Source: Candidatus Thorarchaeota archaeon (GTDB lineage Archaea; Asgardarchaeota; Thorarchaeia; Thorarchaeales; Thorarchaeaceae). Taken from it: a stretch of 55,061 nucleotides of DNA. Of this stretch, positions 845 to 55,061 are shown in pieces. The stretch is from contig JASFEF010000004.1 of the NCBI GenBank assembly GCA_050124975.1, positions 1 to 55,061 on the forward strand. The letters are read 5' to 3'. The notes beneath the pieces were generated by a model. It was not told the origin of the DNA. It searched no databases and saw only the letters and a program-made list of their open reading frames with translations. The position numbers were made by a program, and so were the translations under genes. Positions within the stretch are counted from its first letter, which is position 1, and every line of letters begins with the position of its first letter.

Positions 845-895
845 TCTGGCATAAGGCGTTATAACTTGTGCGTTTCAAGTGGCGATCTCAATCTG

Positions 896-939: not shown

Positions 940-976
940 GCTAATTTTCTTAGAACACTAAGACCGCTCAAGTTGG

Positions 977-3396: not shown

Positions 3397-3426
3397 TCAC
3401 CTCTGTACTAGATAGAATGTCGCTCA

Positions 3427-3436
3427 GTTATAACGT
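3427..3436 (-). promoter_or_regulatory. TATA-box candidate (TTATAA) for sdhA
   Basis: GTTATAAC ~33 bp upstream of the GTG start; GAGGTGA SD-like sequence just before the start. Confidence 0.45.
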
Positions 3437-3453
3437 GTACGGCTTGATAGGCT

Positions 3454-4845: not shown

Positions 4846-4877
4846 TGCAAATATCCTCCGAGTGGTCTTTCCGACCA

Positions 4878-27282: not shown

Positions 27283-27726
27283 ATGCTCGAACCTTCCTCT
27301 GCAGAGTTACTACAACATCAAGTGATTCCAATGCTTCAGGAGATTCAGGAGCAATTTGGATACATTCCTTGTGAGGCTGTTAACTGGCTTGCTGAGAAGC
27401 TCAAGATCAGTAAACAAGAGATCTATGGAGTAGCAACCTTCTACAATCACTTCAGACTCAATCCACCTGGTAAACATGAAATCAAAGTGTGTCTTGGAAC
27501 AGCATGTCATGTTGGTGGTGGAGAGAAGCTTCTCGATACTATTGCGGAAAAGCTTAGTATCAATCCTGGTGAAACAACGCTTGATGGGAAATTCAGTCTA
27601 GAAAGAGTTGCGTGTGTTGGAGCCTGTGCTTTATCTCCCGCAGTCGTTCTTGATGGTGAGGTTCATGGCAGGATGACCCAAAGGTCACTCAAACGACTTC
27701 TGGATAAGGTCCAGAAAGAGGATTGA
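27283..27726 (+). CDS. nuoE: NuoE/HydC-like [2Fe-2S] subunit
   Basis: YGVATFY, VCLGTACH, ACVGACALSP. Confidence 0.92.
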   Translation: MLEPSSAELLQHQVIPMLQEIQEQFGYIPCEAVNWLAEKLKISKQEIYGVATFYNHFRLNPPGKHEIKVCLGTACHVGGGEKLLDTIAEKLSINPGETTLDGKFSLERVACVGACALSPAVVLDGEVHGRMTQRSLKRLLDKVQKED

Positions 27727-27731
27727 TTCTC

Positions 27732-31870: not shown

Positions 31871-31871
31871 A

Positions 31872-32744: not shown

Positions 32745-34196
32745 ATGAGCAAGAGATCAGACGGTCTGACGCCGAAAGAGAGAATGGCAATTCCGAGAGC
32801 TAAGATGCCAGAACAGAATCCAGATGCTCGTGCATCTAACTTCGAGGAAGTCCCACTAGGACTAACTCCTGAACAGGCCATGGAGGAAGCAAAGAGATGT
32901 CTGGATTGTAGAAAGCAGCCCTGTGTGGGCGGGTGTCCTGTCGGTGTCCAGATTCCTGAGTTCATCGCACTTGTTGGTGAAGGAAAGTTCGTTGAAGCTG
33001 CGCGACTCATTAAGGAAACTAATGTGCTACCTGCTGTGACAGGACGAGTTTGTCCACAGGAAAGTCAATGCGAAGGTGTCTGTACGCTAACTAAGAGATA
33101 CGGTGGGGTTTCCATAGGTGCTCTGGAGAGGTTTGTAGCCGATTACGAGAGAGATAATCACTTAGTTGAGATTCCTCCAAAGCCAAAACAGACTGGCAAG
33201 AAAGTTGCCGTGATTGGTTCAGGTCCCTCAGGACTGACGGTTGCCGGTGACCTGATTCTCGAAGGTCACGAGGTCACAATTTTTGAAGCTCTTCATGAGG
33301 CAGGAGGTGTTCTCGTCTATGGTATCCCTGAGTTCAGACTACCAAAGGAGATAGTCCGTGCAGAGGTTGACTATCTTGCTAAACAAGGAGTCGATATCCA
33401 ACTTAACGCAGTAGTAGGCATGTCAATTTCAATGGAAGAACTCCTAGAGGAGTATGATGCTGTCTATATCGGTGTAGGTGCAGGACTACCAACATTCATG
33501 AGAATTGAGGGTGAAGAGCTGAATGGTGTGTTCTCGGCTAATGAATATCTGACTAGATCCAATCTAATGAAAGGATATCTGTTTCCAGACTATGACTCGC
33601 CTTTACCCCCTGGAAAACACACATGCGTTGTGGGAGGAGGAAACGTCGCAATGGATTCTGCTAGAACAGCTAAAAGACTCGGTGCAGAAGTTACCATCGT
33701 CTATCGTCGTGCACGAGAGCAACTTCCAGCAAGAGCAGATGAGGTTCATCACGCTGAAGAAGAGGGCATCAATTTTCAACTCCTTACAAATCCTGTCAGG
33801 ATAATTGGACGGGATGGCAAAGTCGCTGGAATGGAATGCATCAGAATGGAACTTGGTGAACCAGATGATAGCGGAAGACGTAGACCAATTCCTATCGAAG
33901 GTTCAAATTTCGAGTTCGAATGTGACCAAGTTGTGATTTCGATTGGAGCAGGAGCTAACCCTCTACTTGTCCAGACAATGCCAGATCTTAACCTCAACCG
34001 ATGGGGTTACATCGAGGTTGACAAGAACAATCGTACAAGTATTGAGAAGGTATGGGCTGGTGGCGACATCGTTACAGGCGCAGCTACAGTCATCGAGGCC
34101 ATGGGAGCTGGAAGAATCGCGGCAAGATCTATTCAAGCATACCTGACCGGACAACCTCAGCCTGGAACAGAAGAAGAGCAAGAAGAAACAGAGTGA
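32745..34196 (+). CDS. nfnB: NfnB/SudA (GltD-like) flavoprotein
   Basis: RCLDC..PCVGGCP, GRVCPQESQCE, GSGPSG, YGIPEFRL, GGGNVAMD, GDIVTGAATVI. Confidence 0.9.
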   Translation: MSKRSDGLTPKERMAIPRAKMPEQNPDARASNFEEVPLGLTPEQAMEEAKRCLDCRKQPCVGGCPVGVQIPEFIALVGEGKFVEAARLIKETNVLPAVTGRVCPQESQCEGVCTLTKRYGGVSIGALERFVADYERDNHLVEIPPKPKQTGKKVAVIGSGPSGLTVAGDLILEGHEVTIFEALHEAGGVLVYGIPEFRLPKEIVRAEVDYLAKQGVDIQLNAVVGMSISMEELLEEYDAVYIGVGAGLPTFMRIEGEELNGVFSANEYLTRSNLMKGYLFPDYDSPLPPGKHTCVVGGGNVAMDSARTAKRLGAEVTIVYRRAREQLPARADEVHHAEEEGINFQLLTNPVRIIGRDGKVAGMECIRMELGEPDDSGRRRPIPIEGSNFEFECDQVVISIGAGANPLLVQTMPDLNLNRWGYIEVDKNNRTSIEKVWAGGDIVTGAATVIEAMGAGRIAARSIQAYLTGQPQPGTEEEQEETE

Positions 34197-34202
34197 TTCA
34201 GT

Positions 34203-35939
34203 CTACTCCACATACACTTGACGTACTTCTCTAATGACTAAGCCAGGTAAATCTTTCACCGACTTGATTGGATACACATTTGCACCTGCTTCTTCAAGAG
34301 ATCTATGTGTCATTGTCTTCCTTTTGCCGCTACTACCAATATGGAAAAGAAACAGCTTGTGACCCTTCTTTGTGAGTGACCGAATCGACTCAACAAACTT
34401 GTCCCAGTTGGCAATCTCAGCATCCGTCATCATCAAGACCATGACGTTTGACTCAGCTGAGTCGCAAGCCTTAGCAATCTTCTTGATGGGTACAACTGTA
34501 CCTCCACCCTGATAGGCGAGTAGGATACGCTCAGCTTCAGCTTTTGGGGTTGACCATTTGCTTGATCTACTACCACTCGAGAAATTGATCGCAGCTACCC
34601 GAGACCCCCTTCGCAATGCTACATCCATGGCCGCAAAAGCAGCTACCAGTGCGGTATGATAAGAACCTCTGACAGTTTTGGAGGACATCCCCCATGTCAT
34701 CGAGCCACTAGAGTCAATCACGAGAAGCATGTCGGGAAGTGATTTGGATTGCTCCAATCCCTCAGACATCACCTTCATCCACTTACGCGTTGACATATTT
34801 GGGATGAGTACGGGAAACGCCTGAAGAGACTGTACGATATCTAACTCTTCCATGGGATTACCCATCCTCCATACCTGAGGGGTGAGTGGAGCAAGACCAG
34901 AGAATTTCTTCTCTTCAACATCAAATCTCAACAATCCTTTAGCCTTGGCTCTGTACCAGAATTGTATCCATGATTCTCGAGGATTCCCATATCCAGCAGT
35001 GAGATACACACCCTCCAAGTCCTCTAGATTCCCTCCACGTTGTTCGACCTCCACTGCAAGGTCTTCCATCTCAGCTTCCAAGTCAGAGGGAGCGTCCTTC
35101 TGCATACACCTTCGAGCCATGTCACCATTTCTGACCTCTATTGGACTCCCCATAATGGTGTCAACATCAAGAGGGACCATGATAGTTTTGACACCGCCAT
35201 CATCTACTCCTTCGGTTTCCTTTCCTCCTTTAGCCTTATCAACACCTGGTAGTTGCTCGTTTTCATCCTCAGGCATCCACTTTGCAATGATCTCCGCAAT
35301 CTTCTCACATGCCTTTGGCCATCGTTTCTCATTGTCAATCGACTTGCGAGCTATGTCAGCAATTGTAGTTGCTACCTCAGAGGTTGATTCATCAATCTTA
35401 GCTAAGGCAGGGATAGGAAATCCCCACATAGCGCGATAGGATGCAACAATCAATGTCCAGAGAGGACTGTGTTCTTTCACCCTCATTGCAGAATCATGGA
35501 TTGACTCATTGATTCGATTATGTGTCAAGGAAGGATATCGCTTCAGAAGTTTGGAGTCAACAACAAGGTCGGCAAACAAGTTGCACACGAACATTGCTGT
35601 TGCATCGTTTACTTTCTTTCGGGCAGCAGCAAACATCAGTCCATTGGTGACTCCATCATAGGGACACAGAAGGTAGTGTTGGATCTCGTGGTGGCACACA
35701 GATCTCAGATATGGCTCAGCCTCGTTTGCATCCATATGAAGAGGGACACCTGCAACATTGAGATGAACTGTCCAGTTCTCAGAGTCAATGTAGAAGAAAC
35801 TGGCTGCCTCAATCACATTCTCAATCTCTGGTTCAGGAAGGGGTGGATGATAGAAATCGATGAGAGCCTGTCGCCACGATCGTTGAGCCACTTCAATGAG
35901 TCCATGGTCTTCAGGTGATTTTGTCGAAGTTCTCCACAA
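34203..35939 (-). CDS. vWA (MIDAS) protein with N-terminal HExxH metallopeptidase-like domain
   Basis: HHEIQH, NLFADLVVD, IDSSGSM, GGT, MTDAE. Confidence 0.85.
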   Translation of the reverse strand: MWRTSTKSPEDHGLIEVAQRSWRQALIDFYHPPLPEPEIENVIEAASFFYIDSENWTVHLNVAGVPLHMDANEAEPYLRSVCHHEIQHYLLCPYDGVTNGLMFAAARKKVNDATAMFVCNLFADLVVDSKLLKRYPSLTHNRINESIHDSAMRVKEHSPLWTLIVASYRAMWGFPIPALAKIDESTSEVATTIADIARKSIDNEKRWPKACEKIAEIIAKWMPEDENEQLPGVDKAKGGKETEGVDDGGVKTIMVPLDVDTIMGSPIEVRNGDMARRCMQKDAPSDLEAEMEDLAVEVEQRGGNLEDLEGVYLTAGYGNPRESWIQFWYRAKAKGLLRFDVEEKKFSGLAPLTPQVWRMGNPMEELDIVQSLQAFPVLIPNMSTRKWMKVMSEGLEQSKSLPDMLLVIDSSGSMTWGMSSKTVRGSYHTALVAAFAAMDVALRRGSRVAAINFSSGSRSSKWSTPKAEAERILLAYQGGGTVVPIKKIAKACDSAESNVMVLMMTDAEIANWDKFVESIRSLTKKGHKLFLFHIGSSGKRKTMTHRSLEEAGANVYPIKSVKDLPGLVIREVRQVYVE

Positions 35940-35945
35940 TGAAGA

Positions 35946-37664
35946 TTATCCCCCAATTTGCTGCTCGATTTCTTTCTTCAGTTTCATCGCATCAGTCCCT
36001 CCAGATATCTCAAGAAACACTGCAGAGTCTGGAGAGTCACCAGTAGTGTAAATGACAACAGTGAGACCATCAGTTCTCACAATCTTTCTCTTTGGAGGTG
36101 TGAGGGTTTCTTTCAGGATACTGGTTAGTTTTGGATATTGCAGACTGATTGTTGTCCAGAGATCCTGCCATTGCTCAAAGGTGATGGCAAATTGGGTCAG
36201 TGTGAGTCTATGGAGAGCATCGGACACCTGTTTGAGAAGCATACTCCTGTTAGGGAACTCTGTGTCCGCAAGCAAGTCATCATACACCTTAGTCAGTTCT
36301 TCGACATTCCGATCTTTAATCCCCTTCTCAATATTCTTCACAGTCTTGGTATAGCCAGATCTTCTCAATTCCTTTGCAAATGCAGTGTAGTCCAAACGGA
36401 CAAGAAGGTCACTCTTTGCCATCTCCTTGAGTTCACCCATTGCATCTTTTGCGTCCTTACCCTGCTTCAGCCTCTCCATGATAGCGATTGCGGGAGCACG
36501 CTGTGCAAATCTAGATGAAGCAAGCTCAACAAGATGCTTCGTGTAAGCATAGACATCACCATAATAGGGAGAGCGTTCGAGTTCATCTCTCACTAGTCGA
36601 GTACGATGCCAGAAGACAAGGGGAGCAAGAGATTTGATGATCTCTACGCTAACTTCCTGTGCGCCTACAAGCCAGGCAGCAGCCTTGGAGTATCTGTTGA
36701 GGTCTTTGGCTGCACGCACACTCAGGGGGATTATCACTTTGTTACAGACACTCTTTACAGTGTTGAAGTGACACCCATCACAGAGACCAGTATCAACTGT
36801 TAGTCCTGAGGATTGACTCTTGTCAGCACGGATGCATGCTCCGAACTCTCGAACAAGCGAGCGCATAAATTCAGATGCTTCGGATGAAACATGCACCTTA
36901 TCAGCCAAGTTCCAGATCGTGAGAAGATTTTCTTCGGTGAGTACTGCTGGGACCTGCCAGAGCTCGTCGAATCCAAAGAGACGTTCATCGCGAGCTGCCA
37001 GGATGAGTTCCAAATCGTTCACCGTGGGCATTGTGATTGGAACTGCAAGTCCGAATCTATCTAGAAAGGGGGGACCGATTTCGAATGTTCCTGCATCAGC
37101 AGGATTCAGGGTTGCATAGAGACAGTATTCCTCGCACCGTTTGATTTCGTCGTAGTACTTCACCTCACCTTCTGCTAGAAGGGAGAGCAGAATGTTCTGG
37201 GCATGAGGCGTGAGTCTGTTTACCTCATCGATTATCTTCCAGAAGTCAGTGACAAATCGGCGCCATACAACAATCTCAACCCCTTCCTTCATCAAAGGAC
37301 CAGGTTTCAATGTAGCAACCATCTTCTCTTCTGTCAGTTGTGGATGCCCTCGGAGAATCCCATCCTCAATCTCTTCAAGAGACCTCCCCGTCATCATTCT
37401 TCCTAGCAGTTTTACAAGTGTGGTCTTACCGCCGCCATGACCACCCACCAAAAGCATAGCTGATCTAGGGGCAAGAGCGTTGAGGATGCATGACCCCACA
37501 ATCAACGGGAATCTAGTTGTCTTAACAGACCTCCTCCTTGAACTAGGGTCATTGTACTTGATTTCAAGATCTGACGAGTGAACAAAAAGACCCCTACTCT
37601 CTACTGTGGACATAACATTCAGTACAAGCTCCCGAAGTTTCTCACTCTGACTCATTGGAACCAC
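35946..37664 (-). CDS. MoxR-type AAA+ ATPase with C-terminal extension
   Basis: Walker A GGHGGGKTT, Walker B IIDEVNR, ATLNP, FLDRF, LSVRA. Co-oriented with the vWA gene. Confidence 0.85.
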   Translation of the reverse strand: MVPMSQSEKLRELVLNVMSTVESRGLFVHSSDLEIKYNDPSSRRRSVKTTRFPLIVGSCILNALAPRSAMLLVGGHGGGKTTLVKLLGRMMTGRSLEEIEDGILRGHPQLTEEKMVATLKPGPLMKEGVEIVVWRRFVTDFWKIIDEVNRLTPHAQNILLSLLAEGEVKYYDEIKRCEEYCLYATLNPADAGTFEIGPPFLDRFGLAVPITMPTVNDLELILAARDERLFGFDELWQVPAVLTEENLLTIWNLADKVHVSSEASEFMRSLVREFGACIRADKSQSSGLTVDTGLCDGCHFNTVKSVCNKVIIPLSVRAAKDLNRYSKAAAWLVGAQEVSVEIIKSLAPLVFWHRTRLVRDELERSPYYGDVYAYTKHLVELASSRFAQRAPAIAIMERLKQGKDAKDAMGELKEMAKSDLLVRLDYTAFAKELRRSGYTKTVKNIEKGIKDRNVEELTKVYDDLLADTEFPNRSMLLKQVSDALHRLTLTQFAITFEQWQDLWTTISLQYPKLTSILKETLTPPKRKIVRTDGLTVVIYTTGDSPDSAVFLEISGGTDAMKLKKEIEQQIGG

Positions 37665-40006: not shown

Positions 40007-43000
40007 ATGAGTGAAACTAGGGTTAATATCGAGTCAGTAAGATTGGGAAATTTCCTGTCATTCTACGCTGGAACAGTAGAATTTGACAAAGGTCTAACTG
40101 TACTTGCGGGACCTAATGGTTCAGGTAAGACCTCAATCTTCCATGCGCTGAAATTTGCCCTTGGTTCAAATCAAAGAGAGAATCGGTACAGCAAGTGGAG
40201 TGACTTCATCCGGCATGGAGCAAGTACGGCGGAGGTTGAGATATCCGTCAAGGTGAATGGCCAGAGTCGCAAGTTTCTCAGGAGAATTGATAGAGATGGC
40301 ATTCCTCGAGCATACACAGATGGACGTCGAGTGAAAGCCGCAGAACACAAGCAATTGATCAATGCTCTAGGTCTTGAAACCGACAATCCACTTGTCTTCA
40401 TGCCACAAGAGAGAATCAATGCAATACGAGAGATGGACCCATTTGAGGTCAGGAGACTTGTGGAGGAAGGAACGGGACTCGATATTCTTAGAGATAGGAT
40501 TGGTCTTCAGGAAACCGAAGTGAGTCAAAGTCGCCAAAAACTTGAGGTGGCTCTCGCTGAGTCCAAGACTGTTGAACGAGAGCTGGAGTTACTACAGCAT
40601 GATATCTTTCGTCTTGAGAAGAAGAGGGCTTTACAGACACAGGAGAGAGAGCTAGAACAGGAACTGAAATGGTCAAGTTTTGATGATCTGTCTGAAAGGA
40701 TCCAACAAACAAAAGATGAGATTGAAACAAAGGAGTCTGGTTTGGTAGGAGTCCTTGAAGAACAAAGCACGATTGAAGGACAGATTTCTGAAGAGGAAGA
40801 GAATAGTACAAAACTTGAAGCCAGTATGTCAATACTCCAGACTGAAATTGGCAGGATTATTGCCAATATTGAGGAAGAAGAGAGGAACCTTGCCAAGCTC
40901 AAAGGAGATTCGAAGAAACAAATAGTGGAACTGCGGCAACTTGAAAGCAATGTAAAGGCTGAGAAACGAAAAGAAGAGAAACTCAAGGATGACCTAGAGA
41001 GAGTATCAGCTGCGCGAGAACAGTACCTAGACCAGCAAAAGACGTTGAGTGAAGAGATCAAAGGACTGGAGGAAGAGCGAACAAGAATTAGAGATGAACT
41101 TGCCGCATTTGCTGAATGGAATACAAAGAGAGCAGAAGCACATGGTCATTATAAAGCACTTCAGGCTGAGATTGAGGGCAAGGACCTCCTCATGAGGAGT
41201 CTTCGTGAAAGACTTCAGGTAGAGGAAGCTGAACTACAAGCAATAGAAAGCAAGTGGTCACATGTGTGGGATAAGATAGAGGAAACAGATGCAAAAGAGC
41301 TAGAAGGAAGGAAATCTCAACTAGAGAGAGAGATTGCATCCCTTAACGAGGAACGGTTCAGAAAAACAAGTCGAGTAGCTCAACTTCAGAAAGAGATAGA
41401 CGATATCAAGGTCAGACTATCTGAAACATCCAAGCGAATCCCTGAATCTGTTAGAGACCTTAGTGAGGCGATTTCAGAGCACAATCTTGAGAGCGTTAAG
41501 GGACCCCTCATCAGTTTATTCACTGCGGATGACGAGATTTCGCCAGCTGTGGAAGGAGTCCTCGCAGGGAACCTCCCATTAGCGTTTGTCACCACAGATT
41601 TTTCTGACTATCAACTACTACTCAAACTTCGAAACAAGGAGGAAGCACCATCTCCAATTATCTTCCTAAGGGAAGAAGAAGTACAGGAGAGACCGGAGCT
41701 ACCTCAGGGGGCAGGAGTTGAGGATTGGCTCTGGGACAGACTCTCGGCAGACGAAGAGATTCAGTCGCTCCTTGGTATAGTATTTGGTAATTTCGTGCTT
41801 GTCAAGAATTCACAGACTGCAGCACGACTTGCTAGCAAGCGGAATTTCAGAGTCGTCACACGAGATGGCTCAATTACAATACCAAGTGATTCACAGATAG
41901 TCAGTCATCCGAAGAGTGAGCCCTCAGGAATGGTTTCCACTGCACCACTACAGTCACGGCTGGTGAAGTTGGAAAAGGATCTAACAATAGAGCGTAGACA
42001 TGTTACAGACATAATGGCGAAACTAGAAACTCTCTCGAATAGCCGAGAGGAAACATTGGAACTGATAAGCCAGATGACTCGCTGGGGTTCAACTTGGGAG
42101 CGTAGACGGAAGCTCAATGAGAGCATTCCTGAGCTTGAGGAGCGAATAGTGAGCATCGATGATGAACTGAAGACTCTACAACGAGATTATGGAAGGTCAG
42201 AGAGAAACCTCAGAAAACTAGATAATACGCAACCCCCTGAGCGCAGCAGATTGGTAGGACAGGAGTCTGCAATCAGAACAAAACACCGTCGTCTTCAGAG
42301 TGACTTGACCAAAGTGGACACAAAGGCATATGCCTCTGAGAAGGATGAGGAACTCAAGCGGCAAGAACTGAAGGGGGTCAAAGAAAGCATAACGGTACTC
42401 TCTGACAGCCTCGCCGACCTACGAGAAGAGATTAAGCAATCAAAGGATGCAACGTCGTCAATTCTTGAGAAGATAGAGATTATGCGTGAGGGTAAAGAAG
42501 AAACCAAGAAAAGGCAAACTGAGATTAGAGAAGAACTTGCAGAGGTCCGGACCACTATTAGAACACTGAGTGAAACGTTGGTTGAACTAAATCTACATGT
42601 CAAGAATCGCAGACTTGAAGTCCTGCAGTCAAAGAGACAGCTGACGAATCTTGAATATGAACTAGAGTTGATTGAACAGGAGATTCAAGGGAAGACGAAA
42701 CCTGAAAGTATTCGATCTATAGATTTAGTGAGAAGAGAACTTGTGAAACTCCGACACATCTTAGATGACTATCAAGATGTTTCAGAAACAGTTGCACACA
42801 CAGAGAACCAGTTGAAGGGCAGACTTGGAGAACTCGTGAAACGTGTTGCTGAGCTGGGTGAGGAACTAGAGGAAGCAGAGTCTACCGTTCGCACCATTAG
42901 AGAGCAGTACCACAATGGCATGAATGAAACACTTCGTAAGGTGGAGAAAGGAGTCAACGAGGTTCTAGGAAGAGTTCAATTCCCTGGTAGTGTGAGGTTC

Positions 43001-43375
43001 GAGCTTGCTCTGAGAGATGGGAGATATGGTGTTGAATTCAAGTCTCGAATCAAAACCGAGGGTTTTGGGGATATTAGTGCGGGTTCGGGTGGAGAGAGGT
43101 CTCTAATTGCCATTGGTCTGATTCTAGCCCTTCAGCGGTTCAATCCTGCACCAGTATATGTGATGGATGAGGTTGACACATTCCTTGATGCAACTAACAC
43201 AGAGCTGGTCAGTCGTCTCTTTCACGATGCATCCAGACGTAGCCAGTTCATTCTACTAACACCAGCAAAGAGTACGCATTTACTGAAACATGCTGACAAG
43301 ATACTGGGAGTTGTTTCACCGAATGGTGTTGAGCCTTCGGTGATCATCGAAAGTCCCAAGTTCAAAGCCCAATAG
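40007..43375 (+). CDS. smc: SMC protein, Smc5/6-like
   Basis: GPNGSGKT, DNPLVFMPQER Q-loop, long coiled coils, hinge GPLISLF...AVEGVLAG..LAFV....D, signature SGGERS, ALQ....P.YVMDEVD. Confidence 0.9.
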   Translation: MSETRVNIESVRLGNFLSFYAGTVEFDKGLTVLAGPNGSGKTSIFHALKFALGSNQRENRYSKWSDFIRHGASTAEVEISVKVNGQSRKFLRRIDRDGIPRAYTDGRRVKAAEHKQLINALGLETDNPLVFMPQERINAIREMDPFEVRRLVEEGTGLDILRDRIGLQETEVSQSRQKLEVALAESKTVERELELLQHDIFRLEKKRALQTQERELEQELKWSSFDDLSERIQQTKDEIETKESGLVGVLEEQSTIEGQISEEEENSTKLEASMSILQTEIGRIIANIEEEERNLAKLKGDSKKQIVELRQLESNVKAEKRKEEKLKDDLERVSAAREQYLDQQKTLSEEIKGLEEERTRIRDELAAFAEWNTKRAEAHGHYKALQAEIEGKDLLMRSLRERLQVEEAELQAIESKWSHVWDKIEETDAKELEGRKSQLEREIASLNEERFRKTSRVAQLQKEIDDIKVRLSETSKRIPESVRDLSEAISEHNLESVKGPLISLFTADDEISPAVEGVLAGNLPLAFVTTDFSDYQLLLKLRNKEEAPSPIIFLREEEVQERPELPQGAGVEDWLWDRLSADEEIQSLLGIVFGNFVLVKNSQTAARLASKRNFRVVTRDGSITIPSDSQIVSHPKSEPSGMVSTAPLQSRLVKLEKDLTIERRHVTDIMAKLETLSNSREETLELISQMTRWGSTWERRRKLNESIPELEERIVSIDDELKTLQRDYGRSERNLRKLDNTQPPERSRLVGQESAIRTKHRRLQSDLTKVDTKAYASEKDEELKRQELKGVKESITVLSDSLADLREEIKQSKDATSSILEKIEIMREGKEETKKRQTEIREELAEVRTTIRTLSETLVELNLHVKNRRLEVLQSKRQLTNLEYELELIEQEIQGKTKPESIRSIDLVRRELVKLRHILDDYQDVSETVAHTENQLKGRLGELVKRVAELGEELEEAESTVRTIREQYHNGMNETLRKVEKGVNEVLGRVQFPGSVRFELALRDGRYGVEFKSRIKTEGFGDISAGSGGERSLIAIGLILALQRFNPAPVYVMDEVDTFLDATNTELVSRLFHDASRRSQFILLTPAKSTHLLKHADKILGVVSPNGVEPSVIIESPKFKAQ

Positions 43376-43388
43376 AGAGTGAGCAAAA

Positions 43389-44048
43389 GTGAGCGAAAAC
43401 GAGAGCCTTGCCGAAAATGTCTTCAACATGGTGCAGGCCGTTCGTTCTGGTGAAATCGATCCACTTGAACTAAGATTGACTCAAGCATACAAAGACCTTC
43501 GGGATTTGGCCGCAAAAATCGACAGTAAGATAGACATAGATGAAATGCTGAACGAGATTCTCAGCACTAAAGTCGATCGAGTACACGAGCTTGCTCGAAT
43601 TTTAGCAGCCCCAGAAATCTATGTAAACAGGTTGAAGGAGCTATCGATGAGAAATCTCGCTAAACTCGCGGCATCTAGACAACCTGTAGTCATTGGACAT
43701 CTAGAACATGATTCACTTGGTAGTGCCCTCAGTCGAGTTGTTACATTGATTGACGCAATGTCACGTGAGCCAGTAGAGGACCCAGTTCCAAAGATTACTG
43801 AGCTTCCAAATGGGTTTGCTCTTGATACTGAAGACTCGGTCTTTCTAGAAGACCTAGATAGGTTCCTTTCAACGATTCCAAATGGAGATAGGACACAGTT
43901 CGATGATCTTGTGATGAACGAGGAGCTAGACCTGTTTCTGAAACACTTCCTCTATGTTGTAATCCTCGTTTCCAAGGGAAGATTGCATTATGACCCTGAA
44001 ACTCGGGAGGTCTGGAGACCCTCAATAACTGATGAAGATATGACCTGA
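43389..44048 (+). CDS. Kleisin (ScpA/Nse4-like) subunit
   Basis: 13 bp after smc. GEIDPLEL resembles the ScpA N-terminal EIDPWDI; the C-terminal FL.VVILVSKGRL resembles the ScpA winged-helix motif. Confidence 0.6.
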   Translation: MSENESLAENVFNMVQAVRSGEIDPLELRLTQAYKDLRDLAAKIDSKIDIDEMLNEILSTKVDRVHELARILAAPEIYVNRLKELSMRNLAKLAASRQPVVIGHLEHDSLGSALSRVVTLIDAMSREPVEDPVPKITELPNGFALDTEDSVFLEDLDRFLSTIPNGDRTQFDDLVMNEELDLFLKHFLYVVILVSKGRLHYDPETREVWRPSITDEDMT

Positions 44049-45790: not shown

Positions 45791-46309
45791 ATGTTGTGCA
45801 GAATGAACGAGTATGCCATCCTAATGAAGCTCCTAACAAGGTCAGGAGACCCCATAGGTGCAGGTGTAGATGACATGCTTGATGCACTCGGTCTTCCCGA
45901 GGATATAGGAAGGGAAATCCTATTCAGACGGTTGGGGGAGTTACACTCCAGACTTGAACCTGTAGGACTGACAATCAAACACAATCCGGTAAGCAGTGTA
46001 TTCTATGTCGACACAATACACCAGTCAAAGATGAAACAAGACTCGATGCTCCCAGATAGGTTGGCTGCTACTCTTCTTATTGTAATCACACTTGCGTACC
46101 AAGAAGGGGGATGGGTTTCCTATGACCGAGTGCGAGAGTTTCGGAAGAAGAGTCTGCGAGGAGTCATGGAGGACTTGAGGGAGCTTCAGAATCAAGGATA
46201 CATTGAGTTAGACCCAGCTGATAAGAGGGTGCGGTTAGGTCTTCGTGTCCCCTTTGAGATTGATTATGAGGCATTCTTTAGAGACCTTGTAGCAGAGAGA
46301 GAACAGTGA
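45791..46309 (+). CDS. KITE-like tandem winged-helix protein (ScpB/Nse1/Nse3-like)
   Basis: 172 aa with two wH-like halves: L..L.S.L...GL.I......FY, then L..LAATLLIVITLAY...VS, and L..L.NQGYI......RLG.R. Near smc and the kleisin. Start may be ATG 45803. Confidence 0.6.
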   Translation: MLCRMNEYAILMKLLTRSGDPIGAGVDDMLDALGLPEDIGREILFRRLGELHSRLEPVGLTIKHNPVSSVFYVDTIHQSKMKQDSMLPDRLAATLLIVITLAYQEGGWVSYDRVREFRKKSLRGVMEDLRELQNQGYIELDPADKRVRLGLRVPFEIDYEAFFRDLVAEREQ

Positions 46310-46358
46310 CTTCGTTAGTTTTATCAAGGCAACGTCTGAGGACAACTCGGTCTGAATC

Positions 46359-46718
46359 ATGTCACACAGACGTTCACTAAGATTCTCAAAAACGACCTGC
46401 CCGATCTGCGGTAGCAAGGAAGTTGCCCGTGATGATCACAAGGGAGACCTCCTCTGCACAAACTGCGGTCACATCATAGTCCGTACTGAAACAAGATCAG
46501 TTGGGAAATTCGATGTCGCTCAACATCTCAAGAGAAACGGAAAGATGAATTTCTCAGGTCTACAACAGGTGACGGCTGCCTCCGACGACAAACTGTTCGG
46601 TGTAATTCAGAACATGCTCAATATGGGCTTGATCACAGACATTGGTGGGCAGTACTCACTCACCAAGAAAGGACAGAGATGGTACCGTCAGAGGTTAGGG
46701 CAGGAATGGGGATACTAG
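46359..46718 (+). CDS. TFIIB-type Zn-ribbon plus winged-helix protein
   Basis: CPICGS....D...GDLLCTNCG; C-terminal wHTH ending MGLI....QYSLTKKG. Confidence 0.75.
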   Translation: MSHRRSLRFSKTTCPICGSKEVARDDHKGDLLCTNCGHIIVRTETRSVGKFDVAQHLKRNGKMNFSGLQQVTAASDDKLFGVIQNMLNMGLITDIGGQYSLTKKGQRWYRQRLGQEWGY

Positions 46719-48061: not shown

Positions 48062-51000
48062 ATGATGAAAAAACGACCTGCGAGCAGCTATAGACCTTCT
48101 GTTAAACCATTCAGCAAGAATCAGAGAGAGTTGCTCAAAATAGGACTGCCGCTTGCTGTGGTGATTCTGCTATTCATGCCTATGTGTGTGATGGATAACA
48201 CCACTCAACCGTCTACTTATTCAAACATTGTAGTAGATGAGCGATATGAACTTGGGTCAAACCTGATAGGAATCAACTTGCCCTACTATGTCAACTCTGT
48301 GGCGGCAGGGAACACGACTCATGGTCGAGGAGTCGTTTGGATTTACAATGATACACTCCGCTTCAGAGACCCAGTAAATGTGATTGATGCTTCAGTGAAT
48401 ATTGGATTTGGAGACCCATTCCACCAAACACTCATTGGAGCAGATGTGGATTTAGATGGACACACTGAGTTTCTGTTCATGATGTATAATTTCACGAACA
48501 CGAACCTCATGGTAGTTGATTTTGACGGAGGAGGCTCAGCAACAGAGTATAACTATGATCCAATTCCAGACCCAACGGAAATTATCGTTGGTGATTTCAA
48601 TGGGGACAGCTTGATTGATGTGGGTGTCTACAGCCGCATTCGATTGATAACTAAAGATCTAGCTAGTGACACAATGATTGGTGTCTTCCCTCAGATACCA
48701 TTTACTACAGAAGAGATTGTAAGAGCTTGTACAGGAAACTTCTCGATTGTCGTTGGTGATGAGATTGCCGTCATGTATGTCCAAGACCCATGGACATCAA
48801 GTAGCAAGGTTACCGTTGACACCATATTCGGAGATGGTATGTCTATCAATCCATCTCCTATTGAGTCTGCATCTCATGTTCATGGATGGGATATGGTGTC
48901 ATTCGAGTACGGAAGTGACTTTGACAACCTAGCAGTAACAATGGTAGATATGGATCTTGGAGAGAACATTCTGATTGCTATAAACGCCAATCTTACCCCA
49001 AGGTTTGAGTTAAGGGATGCGAAGTATCTAGGAGATTCATACGTGAAGACGGGGAAATTCGACATGGACGGTCAGGAGGACCTTGTTGTTGTCCCCGGTC
49101 AGAGATCCGACGTGATCTTTGTCAACGGAGAAGATGGAAGAATGATGAGAATCTCACAAGAAGAATGTGTGAGTATGTCTCCTCGTGGTTTTGCTACAGA
49201 TTATCTTGACTCGGACAGCCACATGGATGTTATACTAGAGGGTCCAACAGGCCAATTTTCCTTGGTCAGAGGTAGCAGTGGTGAAATAGGCTACGAAGAC
49301 CCGCGACTTCCTGGACCTTTTGAACAGGTCCTCTCATATGACATCAATAACGACGGTAGAAGTGACGCAATCATGCATTATGGACAAATCAAGGTCTTAC
49401 TCAGTGATACAGAACCACCTGATGTGACTCTTGATCCTATCTACCCAATTCATCCAACCATCTACGATCCCTATCTCAAGGTGGAACTAACTGCTACAGA
49501 TGAGATGTATGTCAAAGATGCGAGGGTCTTTATCCGCCCTGCAGACTTCGCAGTAGGTGGCTATCAACAGAATGAAATGACTGAAGCACAAGGTGGCAAG
49601 TTCATCTTCTTTGAAACGGACTTGCAGGCTGGAAACTACGAATATTACGTTGAAGTTGTGGACCCATATCTGAATACTTACTCGTATGGCAATTTCACCA
49701 ACCCTCACATTCTGAAAGTGGAAGGGCACCTTGCATCAGGTGTTCACTATAATGTCACGTTCGACGAAGCCCAAAAACATGTCTTGACTCTCGGCAATGA
49801 TTCTCTTGGAGATAGTCGAATATACAACGTTGTTTCTGATTCGATAGCTAAAACCACAAGCTTGAGAGTCTTCAGCTCAGACTTCACAAAGCTTGGAGAA
49901 TTCACAATTAATGGTTCTGCAACAGATGAGGTGTTTGAGGTATACACAGGTATGTTTGATGGTGACAATGTCCTGGATCCAATACTCATCAGCAACAACT
50001 ATACTCATGTCAAGATTTGGGCATTTAATGGCGACACATTCACATCGTGGAAAAATGCCACTTACAATCTTCATCCCGCAAGATCAGAACATGGAATGGT
50101 TATTGTAGATGATGATGGGGACAATATTGACGAGCTAGCATATGTTGGTGAGAATAGCACAGGCTATTTCCTGATTAGAGCAGATGATAGTTTTGCCACA
50201 TGGACTGATGTGGCTTTGAAGGAATGGGCGGCAATCGTGGATTATGTGTCAATCAATATGTACGGTTCTGATCCTCAGCTCGCAATATTGAGAGGTGATA
50301 ATGCAGTCTATCTGTACCAGCTCAATAATGTGACTCATTTGAAGACACTGAATTATACATCTCCAGGTTCAACAATCTTTGATGACCCATTCAGAATTCA
50401 GGTATACAAGAATTCTACACATTCAAGCGACCAACTACTAGTGGTCTACCGCAGTTGGCTAGTTGATGTGCCAACAAATTATGTGTGTCTAGTGGACGAA
50501 AACACAGTGAATGTTGGTGATTGGCCTAGCTACATGTTTACAGGTCAGCATATCAGAATCACCTTACCCTATGACGTTGATGATGACGGTGTCGATGAAT
50601 TATCATTTCTCGATGCGGGTGGAAATGCATCACTTTATGAACTATCGACCACAGCAGTTCAATCTTGGACAGTGTTTGTAAGTGATGCTATACCCAGAGG
50701 TGGCATTGTACTGGATTTCGATGGAGATGGTGAGAATGAGTTTGCCATTTCAACATCCGACGACCTTCTAACCGCAATTAGTTTCAGCGGCACGATTGAC
50801 TACACAGCCAATCCAGGTATCGCCTTCAACATGGCACCTATTGGGAATGTGGATGTTGGGGCTGGAGAGGACATTGTAGCATTCCCGATATTCAAGTCAC
50901 GAAACACATTAGCAACAATCCGTAATATTGACCTTCTATACAAGCTTGATGTCACTTTTGAGCTTGAAACAAATCTAACACTTCAAGGAAGCAGCATATG

Positions 51001-54000
51001 GGCAAATACAACAGTCCTGAATGTACATAGTGATCCAGTAAGTGATGCATCAGTGTCTCTTGTTGCCTCATATCGATTCGGAGGAGGTACATCTGTGCAG
51101 ACAATGGGCATGGTCTATGATGATTTATCTGACCTTTATACTACTACTGTTGCTCCAAATTGGCCCATGGGACTGGCGAACTTGTCCCTCTCTGTCAATC
51201 ATGACTATTATGACGGTGTAGGAAGGGAATTCGAGAATGCATTGAGAGTTGAGTCTCCACTAAGCATCTCATTGTTCACGGAGTCTGAGGTATTGCAGGG
51301 AAGTGACTTTGACATCAACATCACTATTACAGACAGCTTAGGTGCGAAAGTCACAGATGCAGAGGTCAATGTGACACTTGATGGTGTGGATTATCCTGTA
51401 TCCTATGTAGGAGGGTCATACTACACCTCTGTCACAGGAATCGATCTTGCGCCTGGAAGCTTCACAGTATATGCTTCAGCTGATCATGAGTATGCCACTA
51501 GTGGGGCCAGTCATTCGAAGTCTGTTTCAGTAGTGGTTGACACTCTGATTATCCTAAGAAGCTCTCCATCTCAGGCAGTGCAAGACCAATTCTTCACAAC
51601 ATGGCTAAACATAACCGATCCCTTCGGAAACCCACTTGACGGTGCGACTGTATCGGTGGACTTTGGGGTTACAGAATTCATACTAGTGGAAATCGAACCT
51701 GGAAGATACCTACTAGATAGTTTGGCATCAATGCCAGTTGGTAACTACACAGCAGAGATCATCATCCAACACCCATATGTCGAGAGTATTGAGTTAGATC
51801 CGTACTACATGGCAGTGACCGGAACCCTCGCACCAGCAGTCGGTTATGAGTCCACAGTCGACGGTGGAACGAATTTCACTGTTTCAGTATTTGTGTACGA
51901 CTCGTATGGCGTTACACCAGTAGGAGCTTGGGCTGAAGTTGAGCTTGGTGGAGTCAACTATACTGCCACACACATAGAAGGAGCTGAATTCAGAGTCCAA
52001 TTAAATGCATCATTGAGTATCGGTCAACACAGTTTTGTAGTCTATGTAGGGGCAGACTTCGGAGTACCACGGGCTGATTCACATGACTTGTATGTGTACT
52101 CATGGCCTGATACTTTTGTGGAATCTTCGATGGGATGGATTATTGAACAAGGCAATTGGACGACACTGACTGTCACTGTGAATGATTGGCAGGGGAATCC
52201 AGTTGTTGATGCAACGGTGACTCTTCTGAGTCCTGCTAGTATCTTATTCACACCATATGGCGATGGATCATACTGGGCTGACTTGGACACCCTTGGTTAT
52301 GCACCATACAACTACTCACTGCTTATCTTGATAGAACACACGTATCTGTATCCAGATGATTCCTATCAGATTCTGACTGTCAACGGACAGGCAGTAGTGG
52401 ATGTTTCTGTGCCGGATATGGTGTTCAATCACCAGATGGCGAGGTTCGATTTTGTTGTTGTGGACATTTACGGAAACCCACTGTATGAATACGATTATAG
52501 CTGTGAATATACTGGAACCTTCACTACATCAGGAACACCATACTACTATGAGTTCTCATGGGAGTTCCAGCCTAATCTCTATCCCGGCACATATCCGCTC
52601 AATATAACAATTGACGGACCATTCCTATCTCATAGTGAGTTTATTGTCTGGGTGGATGTCATTGGAAGTCCATCGTCAATCGTACCTTCGCCTCTCAATC
52701 AATCAATATACCTACAAGGCAATGAGATTAACTTTACAATCGTTGTCCAGGACTTGGCAGGCTACTCCATCTCAGGAGCTCAGGTGACTGCAACGATTCA
52801 CGGGAGTACATATACACTTACAGAAGGAGTTGCAGGGGTCTACTCAAGACAGGTCCCGACGGCAGGACTTCCGCTTGGACAGTACAATGTGACTCTCGGA
52901 ATCTTGCATGACTATCTATTGTCACAGTCGCTTTCGCTAGAGCTATTTGTAAAGGGCTATGCCAGTTTCGACCTTTCAATCTCACCAAGCCCTGTGTTAA
53001 ATCAATACAACGTGACTTTCGATTTCACAATTACAGATGCTTATGGAATCCCACTGACCGGATTCAACTACACACTTAGTTTTGCAGGAGTCTATAATAC
53101 GTCAGGAACATCGATGTCCCACAAGATTTCGTGGGAAGTAGACCCTAGTTTCATTCCTGGAAGCTACTGGCTTAACATGACAGTAGAGAGTAATCTAATT
53201 CTAAGATCAACTCACAATGTGACAATAGGCGTGCAGGGAATTGTTGCTGCGCAAATCCTTCAGCCTTCTCCAGGTGAATCGTTCCCGCAAGGAAACAACA
53301 TCAATTTTGTTGTTCGCGTGAGAGACAATGAAACCTCATACATCACTGGTGCGACTGTAGTCCTGTTTCTACATGGAACTACCTACCCACTCATTGAAAC
53401 GAGTGAGGGGATTTATGGAATCAATGTCACCACTGAAAACCTCCCGTTAGGTGAATACAGCGCACAGATAACGGTGTCAGGGGCTTTCATGGAAACTCAG
53501 CAATTAGCAATTGGATTTGACATAAGTGGATATGCTGATGTTAGAATAGATACAGATCCCTCGATCCTACTCAATTATGAGAATGCGACATTTTCAATAT
53601 TCGTCGAAGACCAAAACGGCAACCCAATCAACGAATACAGCTATATACTCGACTTTGGCAGCCAATACAGCGTTTCAGGAAGCTCCGATTACTTCAAGCT
53701 CCAGTGGAAGTTCATTCCAGAACTGGTTCCAGGAGCTTACACTCTCAATGTGACGATTTCAGGTCCTCACATCCCAACCAATTCGACACAGTTTCTGTTT
53801 CAGGTTATGAGCCAGCTGAACGCAACTGTGCTTTCGCCGATTGAGAACTCGACATTTGTGCAAGGTACAGATTCTGTACTCTTCAAGGTCGACCTGTTAG
53901 ATATGCTTGACAATGTCATGGATGGTGGTTCTGTATCTGTCCTCATACATGATTCATTCTTTGTCCTGACAGATCATGGCAATGGAACCTATTCACGAGT

Positions 54001-55061
54001 CGTTTCAACTGCAGGGTGGGCGGCTGGTGTTTACAATTACACTCTGACAATGAATCACCCATATTTAGCACAAGAAGCTACAGTCAGGAGAACGATAGAA
54101 GTACTTGCTGAGTTGGAGTTCCAGGTAGAGTACCTACCAGAAGTACCTCAACAGGGAGAGTTGCTTAACATCACCATTGAGGTGACCGACAAATATGGTA
54201 ATCCTGTGTCAGATCTAAGCATCTCTGTAACGTTCCAGAACCAAACAGTGCAGGCTCTCGAAACAACTCAGAATGGAGAGTACTTCGTGAGCTTTGTTGT
54301 AGCAAGTCAAGGCTATGGAGATGAAAACATTACCATAGCAGCTGAAGGAGTTATGTGCGTACCATTTTCAGCACAGCCATTATCTAAAGTGCCAGTTGTT
54401 GTGGCAGTGCCTCGTCTAGCAATGGATGTTGAAACATTCACTCCGACTTTCCTCATCGCCTTCATCATCAGCTTTGTAGGTCTTGTCATCTACTTCAGAA
54501 TCTCATCTGGAATATCATTCACTAGAGGATCACAAGAACAACTTCTGAGAGGAATACGAAAATTAGATTACTTGTACGGTATTATTGTGGGTCTCGCAGG
54601 TCTTACAATAGTCCATTCATATGTTTCAGCTGGGTCCGGCGATTATGGCATAGCGGTGCTTGAGAGTATCTTGCTATTGGGCATCTCATTAATACTGTAT
54701 GGCATTTGGTTGTACAGAGATGCATCCTCATCGATTCTCCACACACAAAAGATTAGCAGAAGAAGAATGTTCCTTGGACTTTGGCACTTGATATTTGTGC
54801 CAATCGTAATCATACAGATTTTTGATTGGGGGCAGAATATCGAATGGTTGAAGTTCTATGTCTTGGATAACGTCTTTCACCTAGGAGAACTCCGTGTACC
54901 AACAATTATGATGACCATATTTGCGGCATACCTTTCTTCCATCGTGATAGTCGTTGTGAACCTCTATAGAGAGATCAGAAGAGGAATTTCGAGGCTTAAT
55001 GAGATGGCTGTCTTAGGGACACCACCGATAGTCGTCGAACAGGAGTGTGCAGACCTTGTCG
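48062..55061 (+). CDS. Giant (>2330 aa) cell-surface protein: FG-GAP/VCBS propellers, Ig-like repeats, multi-pass TM domain; 3' truncated
   Basis: In-frame translation at start, middle and end (MMKKRP...EQECADLV). The track lists no stop-terminated ORF in this frame. DxDxDG motifs, V.D..G.P...A.V repeats, many N-x-S/T sequons, at least 5 C-terminal TM helices. Confidence 0.88.
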   Translation, partial: MMKKRPASSYRPSVKPFSKNQRELLKIGLPLAVVILLFMPMCVMDNTTQPSTYSNIVVDERYELGSNLIGINLPYYVNSVAAGNTTHGRGVVWIYNDTLRFRDPVNVIDASVNIGFGDPFHQTLIGADVDLDGHTEFLFMMYNFTNTNLMVVDFDGGGSATEYNYDPIPDPTEIIVGDFNGDSLIDVGVYSRIRLITKDLASDTMIGVFPQIPFTTEEIVRACTGNFSIVVGDEIAVMYVQDPWTSSSKVTVDTIFGDGMSINPSPIESASHVHGWDMVSFEYGSDFDNLAVTMVDMDLGENILIAINANLTPRFELRDAKYLGDSYVKTGKFDMDGQEDLVVVPGQRSDVIFVNGEDGRMMRISQEECVSMSPRGFATDYLDSDSHMDVILEGPTGQFSLVRGSSGEIGYEDPRLPGPFEQVLSYDINNDGRSDAIMHYGQIKVLLSDTEPPDVTLDPIYPIHPTIYDPYLKVELTATDEMYVKDARVFIRPADFAVGGYQQNEMTEAQGGKFIFFETDLQAGNYEYYVEVVDPYLNTYSYGNFTNPHILKVEGHLASGVHYNVTFDEAQKHVLTLGNDSLGDSRIYNVVSDSIAKTTSLRVFSSDFTKLGEFTINGSATDEVFEVYTGMFDGDNVLDPILISNNYTHVKIWAFNGDTFTSWKNATYNLHPARSEHGMVIVDDDGDNIDELAYVGENSTGYFLIRADDSFATWTDVALKEWAAIVDYVSINMYGSDPQLAILRGDNAVYLYQLNNVTHLKTLNYTSPGSTIFDDPFRIQVYKNSTHSSDQLLVVYRSWLVDVPTNYVCLVDENTVNVGDWPSYMFTGQHIRITLPYDVDDDGVDELSFLDAGGNASLYELSTTAVQSWTVFVSDAIPRGGIVLDFDGDGENEFAISTSDDLLTAISFSGTIDYTANPGIAFNMAPIGNVDVGAGEDIVAFPIFKSRNTLATIRNIDLLYKLDVTFELETNLTLQGSSIWANTTVLNVHSDPVSDASVSLVASYRFGGGTSVQTMGMVYDDLSDLYTTTVAPNWPMGLANLSLSVNHDYYDGVGREFENALRVESPLSISLFTESEVLQGSDFDINITITDSLGAKVTDAEVNVTLDGVDYPVSYVGGSYYTSVTGIDLAPGSFTVYASADHEYATSGASHSKSVSVVVDTLIILRSSPSQAVQDQFFTTWLNITDPFGNPLDGATVSVDFGVTEFILVEIEPGRYLLDSLASMPVGNYTAEIIIQHPYVESIELDPYYMAVTGTLAPAVGYESTVDGGTNFTVSVFVYDSYGVTPVGAWAEVELGGVNYTATHIEGAEFRVQLNASLSIGQHSFVVYVGADFGVPRADSHDLYVYSWPDTFVESSMGWIIEQGNWTTLTVTVNDWQGNPVVDATVTLLSPASILFTPYGDGSYWADLDTLGYAPYNYSLLILIEHTYLYPDDSYQILTVNGQAVVDVSVPDMVFNHQMARFDFVVVDIYGNPLYEYDYSCEYTGTFTTSGTPYYYEFSWEFQPNLYPGTYPLNITIDGPFLSHSEFIVWVDVIGSPSSIVPSPLNQSIYLQGNEINFTIVVQDLAGYSISGAQVTATIHGSTYTLTEGVAGVYSRQVPTAGLPLGQYNVTLGILHDYLLSQSLSLELFVKGYASFDLSISPSPVLNQYNVTFDFTITDAYGIPLTGFNYTLSFAGVYNTSGTSMSHKISWEVDPSFIPGSYWLNMTVESNLILRSTHNVTIGVQGIVAAQILQPSPGESFPQGNNINFVVRVRDNETSYITGATVVLFLHGTTYPLIETSEGIYGINVTTENLPLGEYSAQITVSGAFMETQQLAIGFDISGYADVRIDTDPSILLNYENATFSIFVEDQNGNPINEYSYILDFGSQYSVSGSSDYFKLQWKFIPELVPGAYTLNVTISGPHIPTNSTQFLFQVMSQLNATVLSPIENSTFVQGTDSVLFKVDLLDMLDNVMDGGSVSVLIHDSFFVLTDHGNGTYSRVVSTAGWAAGVYNYTLTMNHPYLAQEATVRRTIEVLAELEFQVEYLPEVPQQGELLNITIEVTDKYGNPVSDLSISVTFQNQTVQALETTQNGEYFVSFVVASQGYGDENITIAAEGVMCVPFSAQPLSKVPVVVAVPRLAMDVETFTPTFLIAFIISFVGLVIYFRISSGISFTRGSQEQLLRGIRKLDYLYGIIVGLAGLTIVHSYVSAGSGDYGIAVLESILLLGISLILYGIWLYRDASSSILHTQKISRRRMFLGLWHLIFVPIVIIQIFDWGQNIEWLKFYVLDNVFHLGELRVPTIMMTIFAAYLSSIVIVVVNLYREIRRGISRLNEMAVLGTPPIVVEQECADLV

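Follow-up and report, generated by a model that had tools for sequence, protein, structure and literature searches.

A giant, probably adhesive surface protein of a Thorarchaeote with a predicted two-propeller head, an Ig-like stalk and a conserved seven-helix membrane module

According to passages of PMC9258230 and PMC9197732 that cite Liu et al. 2021, integrin-type repeats have already been reported from Asgard genomes, and the FG-GAP part of the protein described below is therefore not new; our own literature search on Asgard archaea and FG-GAP found no papers. In the passages of PMC9834061 consulted, a cultured and imaged Lokiarchaeon is described as having no ordered surface layer (S-layer) and many complex surface proteins, and such proteins are proposed there to mediate the cell-cell contacts behind eukaryogenesis. 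Very few Asgard surface proteins of this kind have been described at the sequence level. We analyzed one that is encoded at the end of a 55,061-nucleotide stretch from a Candidatus Thorarchaeota archaeon (assembly GCA_050124975.1, contig JASFEF010000004.1, forward strand; the whole stretch is called the window). On balance, this giant is probably a Ca-dependent, glycosylated surface adhesin with a long stalk, an Asgard-specific seven-helix anchor and, in its own clade, a cytoplasmic docking tail.

The gene occupies a single open reading frame (ORF) that begins at 47945 and reaches the window's final base without a stop codon, so that its 3' end is open. The ATG at 48062 (MMKKRP) is the start common to the orthologues and agrees also with two public orthologues of 2,493 residues each; it leaves 2,333 residues inside the window, arranged as follows (Ig, immunoglobulin; pLDDT, predicted local distance difference test).

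48062..55061, plus strand: giant surface protein gene, residues 1-2333, ORF open at the 3' end
48062..48193, plus strand: N-terminal basic segment and hydrophobic helix (residues 25-43; hydropathy 2.32)
48257..49411, plus strand: propeller 1 (residues 66-450), predicted 8-bladed, FG-GAP-like, with four DxDxDG-type loops (model pLDDT ~90)
49412..49723, plus strand: beta-sandwich (Ig-like) spacer (residues 451-554; 104 residues), all-beta in the model
49724..50926, plus strand: propeller 2 (residues 555-955), predicted 8-bladed, with three DxDxDG-type loops
50927..54391, plus strand: stalk of ~12 bacterial-type Ig-like domains (residues 956-2110), from Pfam, internal repeats and a PDB profile
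54404..55060, plus strand: first five helices and part of cytoplasmic loop 5 of the seven-transmembrane-helix (7TM) module, from residue 2115, placed by hydropathy and by identity to the orthologue in genome G014

The window is the entire contig C4 of a 3.08-Mb genome (289 contigs, 87.9% complete), and the gene is therefore truncated by the assembly and not by biology; the window holds the 5' 94% of it. A profile of the C-terminal module matched the same genome a third time, at the very start of contig C126, and the two matches are in register, that in the window ending at profile position 228 and that on C126 beginning at 232. Positions 1-474 of C126 code for 157 residues, comprising two further transmembrane (TM) helices and a tail, which share 69% identity with the end of the closest complete orthologue, that of G014. 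The missing 157 codons thus very probably lie on C126, after a gap of ~3 codons at which the orthologues have E-S-L, for a total of ~2,493 residues, and the two public orthologues (87-88% identity) are both exactly 2,493 residues long. A DNA contig from one public run reaches 117 bases past the window end. Since no synteny was found between C126 and the genes downstream of the G014 orthologue, the joining of C4 to C126 rests solely on sequence register and clade identity.

The N-terminal helix may be a Sec signal peptide or else a signal anchor that stays uncleaved. The motif R...[FY]RP (R..[FY]RP) that accompanies it is conserved in all six aligned close N-termini and present in just 3 of 45 long family representatives, the distant members having short, ordinary signal-like N-termini. 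For residues 45-960, an AlphaFold model with a mean pLDDT of 83.4 turned out to be all-beta, with two beta-propellers and a beta-sandwich between them. Each propeller is predicted to be 8-bladed, because the model places ~31-32 strands in each, and their best fits by VIA-align were likewise 8-bladed (Rsa4, Tako8, Cdc4, Bap1, and BamB, Z 25-28). Propeller 1 (model residues 22-406) aligned to the 8-bladed Rsa4 with Z 28.0 (root-mean-square deviation [rmsd] 3.0 A, 327 residues aligned) and to Vibrio cholerae Bap1 (6mlt) with Z 25.5 (rmsd 3.6 A, 341 aligned), as well as to the 8-bladed designer proteins Tako8 and Cake8, and propeller 2 (model residues 511-911) aligned to the 8-bladed BamB with Z 25.1 (rmsd 3.2 A, 317 aligned). 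The top Foldseek rows for the head were the multi-propeller proteins DDB1, SF3B3, and CPSF160 (E ~1e-15). In Pfam, FG-GAP_3 matched propeller 1 with 37.3 bits against a cut-off of 26.9 (E 4.2e-9), and the spacer gave sub-threshold matches only (X25_BaPul_like and Big_13). Seven DxDxDG-type motifs start at residues 128, 177, 331, 427, 683, 838, and 885 (window positions 48443, 48590, 49052, 49340, 50108, 50573, and 50714), and their Asp and Gly positions are invariant in an 18-row alignment of homologues of 23-83% identity.

The stalk passed the Pfam cut-offs for Big_1 (43.6 bits versus 34.9) and Invasin_D3 (37.7 versus 33), and also those for Wzt_C, ZirS_C, and YtkA. It contains a two-domain super-repeat of 190-200 residues, with internal repeats down to E 1.7e-35, and its PDB profile matched the invasin-like FdeC structure 4e9l (E 2.4e-5). 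At ~96 residues per domain, the stalk therefore comprises ~12 domains, which at typical domain size would give a rod of ~45-50 nm; the last, a Big_1 Ig domain (residues 2036-2093), stands immediately ahead of TM1. The ectodomain holds 50 NxS/T sequons, against 18.5 +/- 4.0 in shuffled sequences, and the TM part none. Sequons are enriched also in four orthologues (z 6.1-7.2) and in a paralogue (z 3.5), a pattern that would be expected of an N-glycosylated archaeal surface protein.

Behind the stalk, four hydrophobic helices in the window exceed the threshold, a fifth is present at the same place in the orthologues, and two more follow past the edge; the complete orthologues and the paralogue have seven. 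The window part of the module is 82% identical to the G014 module, whose model (built on a 42-row alignment; mean pLDDT 78.4, core >90) has seven long helices, with a small beta-hairpin in the loop that connects helices 4 and 5. Across the 42 rows, the predicted inner loops carry on average 21.6 Lys plus Arg and the outer ones 1.1, and the topology is accordingly N-out and C-in. An earlier note on this DNA, in which most of this layout had been read from the letters, thus proved accurate in its N-terminal hydrophobic signal (here residues 25-43), its seven quoted DxDxDG-type motifs, its two FG-GAP propellers with an Ig-like spacer (as modeled, FG-GAP_3 passing its cut-off in propeller 1 only), its ~12 Ig-like repeats, and its TM helices, at least five in number and open at the edge. 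The rest of the gene, which it had proposed to retrieve, is very probably that on C126. Its comparison of the FG-GAP blades with those of integrin-alpha propellers needs one correction, the blades of each propeller being predicted to number eight and not seven as in integrin alpha.

The module is also the most conserved part of the protein. Relative to the orthologues in genomes G017, G018, and G006, it is 73-77% identical, compared with 54-55% for the stalk, 43-46% for the propellers, and 35-37% for the tail; relative to the paralogue, it is 46% identical and the ectodomain 26-34%. Two residues are invariant, Pro175 and Asp115, the latter in the WLYRD motif with which helix 3 ends on the inner side, and Arg114, His137 (helix 4), Tyr197, Lys238, and others are nearly so; conserved residues lie in the predicted cytoplasmic loops too (YRD and loop 5). 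The family signature comprises WLYRD at the inner end of TM3, GLWH in TM4, an outer hairpin G..I.W...G....P, and K..FL in TM6; the window gene carries TM1-5 with the signature motifs and C126 carries TM6-7. Such constraint on the membrane module would be unexpected for a mere hydrophobic foot.

We found no relative of the module among known families. A Pfam search at E <= 10 returned only noise and no 7TM family, including 7TMR-DISM_7TM; NCBIfam gave no match; a PDB sequence profile search gave no relative (LptF alone, E 8.9); and the best ESM Atlas score was 0.76, under the level of a lead. Foldseek of the model against the PDB yielded nothing at E <= 0.001 (best E 0.4). In VIA-align against 48,161 chains, the rows for the model were generic bundles with Z <= 10.4 on ~100-155 aligned residues, the best (Z 10.4, 97 residues) being a designed ~100-residue bundle; Z values of this size are common among unrelated helical bundles. 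These absent sequence and fold matches do not amount to a new fold.

By HMMER, 101 of 1.84 billion representative proteins matched the module at E <= 0.001, and 42 did so at E <= 1e-30. In all 52 matches of at least 1,200 residues, the module is C-terminal, preceded by 847-2,060 residues and followed by at most 110; the 49 shorter matches mostly begin or stop within the module or the ectodomain and look like fragments. Tails have just 0-13 residues in about half of the long members. Distant members have different ectodomains, some ending in cytoplasmic double zinc ribbons, and all of those that are named are Asgard (Sigynarchaeum or Promethearchaeota). The named public relatives (67 loci) are nearly all from Candidatus Thorarchaeota or Promethearchaeota, which, too, places the organism in the Thorarchaeia of the Asgard archaea. 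The bundle appears to be found only in Asgard archaea. In public records these proteins are named "hypothetical", "Ig-like domain-containing", or "FG-GAP repeat domain-containing". The module was found in 67 of 301 genomes of the phylum and in 50 of the 76 genomes of the window's family. Within the genus, a tree of the module splits into two clades with 100/100 support each: clade A, of ~2,500 residues with a long tail, which includes the window gene, and clade B, of ~1,850 residues with a short tail, which includes the following paralogue.

Contig C94 of the same genome (G000, locus L005), 673-6207, minus strand: complete paralogue of 1,844 residues, laid out alike but with fewer Ig domains and a tail of 11 residues

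The tail of the window gene has 93 residues and is acidic (33 Asp plus Glu versus 10 Lys plus Arg); no globular domain was found in it by Pfam. A match to CAAP1 (E 5.5e-4, 20.8 bits, below the cut-off of 25) was taken as noise. Its last 40 residues, LSKAEIIEMLPDELKEIVSMEEIQKLTKAQLLELL, are predicted to be helical (pLDDT 81-95 in the G014 model) and form a motif that recurs in the same genome.

Contig C126 of G000, 337-471: tail motif of the window gene, ..L[ST]K.EL...LP.E.[KR]E......EL..L.K..L..L..
Contig C62 of G000 (locus L110), 3-878: tail motif at the very end of a second surface protein
Contig C232 of G000 (locus L111), 871-2028: two copies of the tail motif in a soluble 385-residue HEAT-repeat protein

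The C62 protein consists of an Ig-like ectodomain, one TM helix, a long acidic linker, and then the motif. In the HEAT protein (HEAT_2, E 9.3e-15), the two copies flank a poly-lysine linker, and a HEAT protein with two copies was present in all five relatives examined. In relatives, the tails of single-pass giants of 3,357 and 3,848 codons contain the motif twice. With a cut-off of E <= 1e-6, 40 of 43 family genomes had the motif, as against 0 of 157 genomes elsewhere in the phylum; among the carriers are giants of a genus (g17) for which the search for the 7TM module gave no match. The simplest reading is that the motif is a family-specific docking motif that would tie various giant surface proteins to a common cytoplasmic partner, most likely the HEAT-repeat protein with its two copies.

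An adhesin built from these parts would work as follows. After export by the Sec pathway, the rod of ~12 Ig-like domains would project from the membrane and bear at its far end the two 8-bladed FG-GAP-type propellers, whose conserved DxDxDG loops would bind Ca2+ and shape the ligand-binding face. Ligands might be glycans or proteins on partner cells, on particles, or on the cell's own coat. The seven-helix bundle, N-out and C-in, would hold the protein in the membrane in place of a single helix or a lipid anchor, and the last 40 residues of the tail would dock to a cytoplasmic partner, most likely the two-motif HEAT-repeat protein. Of this picture, the order of the domains, their predicted folds, the topology, the conservation, and the distribution come from the analysis itself, and Ca2+ binding, adhesion, glycosylation, docking, and any signal through the bundle are inferences from it. 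The Lokiarchaeon surface, as portrayed in the passages of PMC9834061 cited above, fits such a role, though it belongs to another Asgard lineage.

Several observations weigh against an adhesin of this design. The N-terminal helix may remain in the membrane, which would tether both ends of the protein and alter its geometry. Propeller 2 scored 21.2 bits with FG-GAP_3 (E 4.6e-4), under the cut-off of 26.9. WD40 and BamB propellers match the head as well as the FG-GAP-type Bap1 does, and the propeller fold is therefore uninformative on the ligand. The conservation of the bundle and its polar residues (WLYRD and the TM4 His) seem to exceed the needs of an anchor and hint at a further function. No neighbor that might be a partner gene is conserved across clade A among the 67 loci, and the join of C4 to C126 was deduced from sequence register, not sequenced. 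Finally, neither the paralogue nor most of the wider family has the tail with its motif, so docking cannot be the general role of the module.

A rival explanation is a signalling receptor, in which a ligand or a pull would shift the 7TM bundle and the loops and tail would relay the change to the inside, in analogy to adhesion G-protein-coupled receptors (GPCRs) without being related to them. Three points favor more than a passive anchor, namely, the conservation of the module, which exceeds that of any other region, the conserved residues in its predicted cytoplasmic loops (YRD and loop 5), and the occurrence of the tail motif in the soluble HEAT protein. A seven-helix, N-out, C-in domain behind a giant adhesive ectodomain, together with the cytoplasmic double zinc ribbons of distant members, points the same way, as does a receiver-domain gene two genes from the clade B paralogues, which is weak evidence because its 24 loci come from closely related genomes. 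Signal passage through the bundle is possible. Nevertheless, a Pfam scan of the whole protein at E <= 1 found no GPS/GAIN domain (nor PKD, REJ, or PLAT), and the bundle showed no sequence likeness and no convincing fold likeness to GPCRs, the sole GPCR row in VIA-align having Z 8.0 and an rmsd of 11.9 A. No output domain was found, tails being next to absent in about half of the long members, and no GTPase, roadblock, longin, kinase, or other signalling gene stands beside the clade A genes. On this evidence we consider a signalling receptor unlikely. The earlier note had proposed outside-in signalling of the adhesion-GPCR or polycystin type, and none of the tests (domains, fold, tail, and neighbors) supported it; the small GTPase, roadblock, or longin genes that it had suggested looking for downstream were found neither on C126 nor at the G014, G017, G018, and G006 loci. 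As for the outcome that it had named as speaking against itself, a C-terminus without a cytoplasmic domain is indeed what was found, but the bundle matches neither a simple anchor nor a permease.

The sequons and the Ig-like array would suit also a structural coat protein, S-layer-like or of the glycocalyx, in which the giant would be a main building block of the envelope and the 7TM module a strong foot. Ig-like arrays are common in archaeal envelope proteins, sequon enrichment is heavy, and one or two copies of the gene occur in 20 of 24 relatives' genomes of the genus. Moreover, four 151-nt contigs from two metatranscriptome runs are 99-100% identical to the gene, though such libraries may contain DNA. 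On the other side, the gene was not found in 4-5 genus genomes that are 89-99% complete, in many genera of the family, or in 26 of the 76 family genomes, which would be odd for an essential coat, and two Ca-type propellers at the tip resemble a binding head. A passage of the preprint 10.1101/2024.05.28.596244 adds that no lattice model could be produced there for putative Asgard S-layer proteins. A coat protein seems to us distinctly improbable.

That the module is a channel, a transporter, or a membrane enzyme, for instance one gated by force through the stalk, with the ectodomain as a sensor or substrate-catching arm, we regard as very improbable: its high conservation would suit such a role, as would the Asp that is invariant and the Arg, His, Tyr, and Lys that are nearly so, all of them within helices or at helix ends, and four-helix TM domains of pentameric channels are among the best, though weak, VIA-align rows (Z 8.3-9.0, rmsd 3.4-4.4), but these Z values lie within the range for unrelated helical bundles, and no transporter or enzyme family was matched in Pfam, NCBIfam, the PDB sequences, or the ESM Atlas.

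The adhesin reading, with its docking tail, can be extended to a lineage-specific adhesion-receptor system of Thorarchaeotes, in which integrin-like or Ig-like giants on an Asgard-only 7TM transducer or on single helices would dock, through the shared motif in their tails, to a soluble HEAT adaptor with two copies of it. We consider this extension distinctly improbable. If it held, the prokaryotes closest to eukaryotes would have an archaeal coupling of receptor and adaptor, like that of integrin and talin, by which contact with other cells or with a matrix is linked to the cell interior.

The surroundings of the gene differ between relatives, upstream neighbors being kept within subgroups only. 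On C126, the next genes code for two small proteins, an SBP_bac_5 protein, a PIG-U-like membrane protein, a WD40 protein, and an H+-pyrophosphatase. The stretch C126 1791-5786 (locus L107), ~1.3 kb past the probable end of the gene, contains the SBP_bac_5 solute-binding protein, which has a C-terminal TM helix, and a 613-residue polytopic protein with a weak likeness to PIG-U and to dolichol-phosphate (DolP) mannosyltransferases, possibly a glycosylation enzyme near a sequon-rich gene. In eight clade A loci, a convergent 297-residue vWA gene without a signal peptide lies just downstream (in G017, locus L018, 11364-12257), followed by a DUF6989 membrane protein; the vWA gene is not beside the window gene on C126. 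At the loci of clade B relatives, a convergent ~500-residue gene without a known family is next (29 loci), and a stand-alone response-regulator receiver gene follows it (24 loci).

Upstream in the window, 45791-46718 codes for a 172-residue protein and a 119-residue TFIIB-type zinc-ribbon protein, which fits an archaeon; a matching pair precedes the G014 orthologue, with identities of 86% and 82%, respectively, and at other clade A loci this place is taken by a different small Cys-rich protein. At 40007-44048, an SMC protein of 1,122 residues (SMC_N and hinge) is directly followed by a 219-residue ORF without a Pfam match, which is possibly its kleisin partner. On the minus strand at 34203-37664 are a MoxR-like AAA_5 ATPase (572 residues) and a 578-residue protein with a weak vWA_2 match. 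A NuoF-like flavoprotein, a NuoG/molybdopterin-type Fe-S protein, and a Fer4_20/Pyr_redox_2 oxidoreductase are encoded in a cluster at 27723-34196 and together resemble a complex that is soluble and either electron-bifurcating or formate/NAD(P)H-linked.

In our literature searches, we found no description of this family or of any Asgard surface protein with a 7TM anchor, and none of the 7TM module or of its strict link to giant ectodomains, nor of the two-propeller head or the tail motif shared with the HEAT protein, although Liu et al. 2021 and its supplements may include the family and bear on all of these. What emerges is a concrete, conserved family with a defined head, stalk, and anchor, an orphan membrane module, and a tail motif that points to a candidate partner; the head, stalk, anchor, and tail can each be expressed and tested. 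The analysis also corrects an over-reading, in that the likenesses to "integrin" and "GPCR" are architectural and no proof of ancestry.

Adhesion GPCRs and polycystin-1 likewise place a polytopic membrane domain behind a very large adhesive ectodomain, and GPCRs share the seven helices and the N-out, C-in topology. Adhesion GPCRs, however, carry GAIN/GPS before TM1, where the present protein has a Big_1 Ig domain, and no G-protein-type partner of the latter is known. Polycystin-1 has PKD, REJ, GPS, and PLAT domains and 11 TM helices, whereas the giant has none of those domains and seven TM helices. The likeness to both is one of layout only. Bacterial 7TMR-DISM receptors, too, fuse an extracellular module to seven TM helices in a prokaryote, but their cytoplasmic kinase or cyclase output has no counterpart here, nor does the bundle match a Pfam 7TM model.

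V. cholerae Bap1 and RbmC share an 8-bladed propeller head of the FG-GAP/VCBS kind. Bap1 is secreted and has no membrane anchor, whereas the giant is anchored, and the match is at the fold level only, because unrelated 8-bladed WD40 propellers score as high (Z 28). The intimin, invasin, and FdeC adhesins present a distal binding module on a Big_1/Invasin_D3 rod, as the giant appears to do; theirs is an outer-membrane beta-barrel anchor with a lectin-like tip, and the archaeal protein has instead a propeller tip and an alpha-helical 7TM anchor.

With integrin alpha, the giant shares FG-GAP-type repeats with DxDxDG loops in a propeller head, Ig-like legs, and a short cytoplasmic tail, and the family profile weakly matches integrin alpha-V (E 0.009, ~105 residues); the Pfam scan of the whole protein gave no Integrin_alpha2 match. 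Integrin alpha has one propeller, of the 7-bladed type, thigh and calf domains, and one TM helix, as opposed to two propellers, each predicted to be 8-bladed, ~12 Big_1/invasin-type domains, and seven TM helices here. It pairs with a beta subunit, whereas no such partner of the giant is known, no systematic search for one having been made. FG-GAP repeats are widespread in prokaryotes, and the likeness is therefore one of shared repeat ancestry and does not make the protein an integrin. Overall, the giant would work somewhat like an integrin or an intimin-type adhesin while being a member of neither family.

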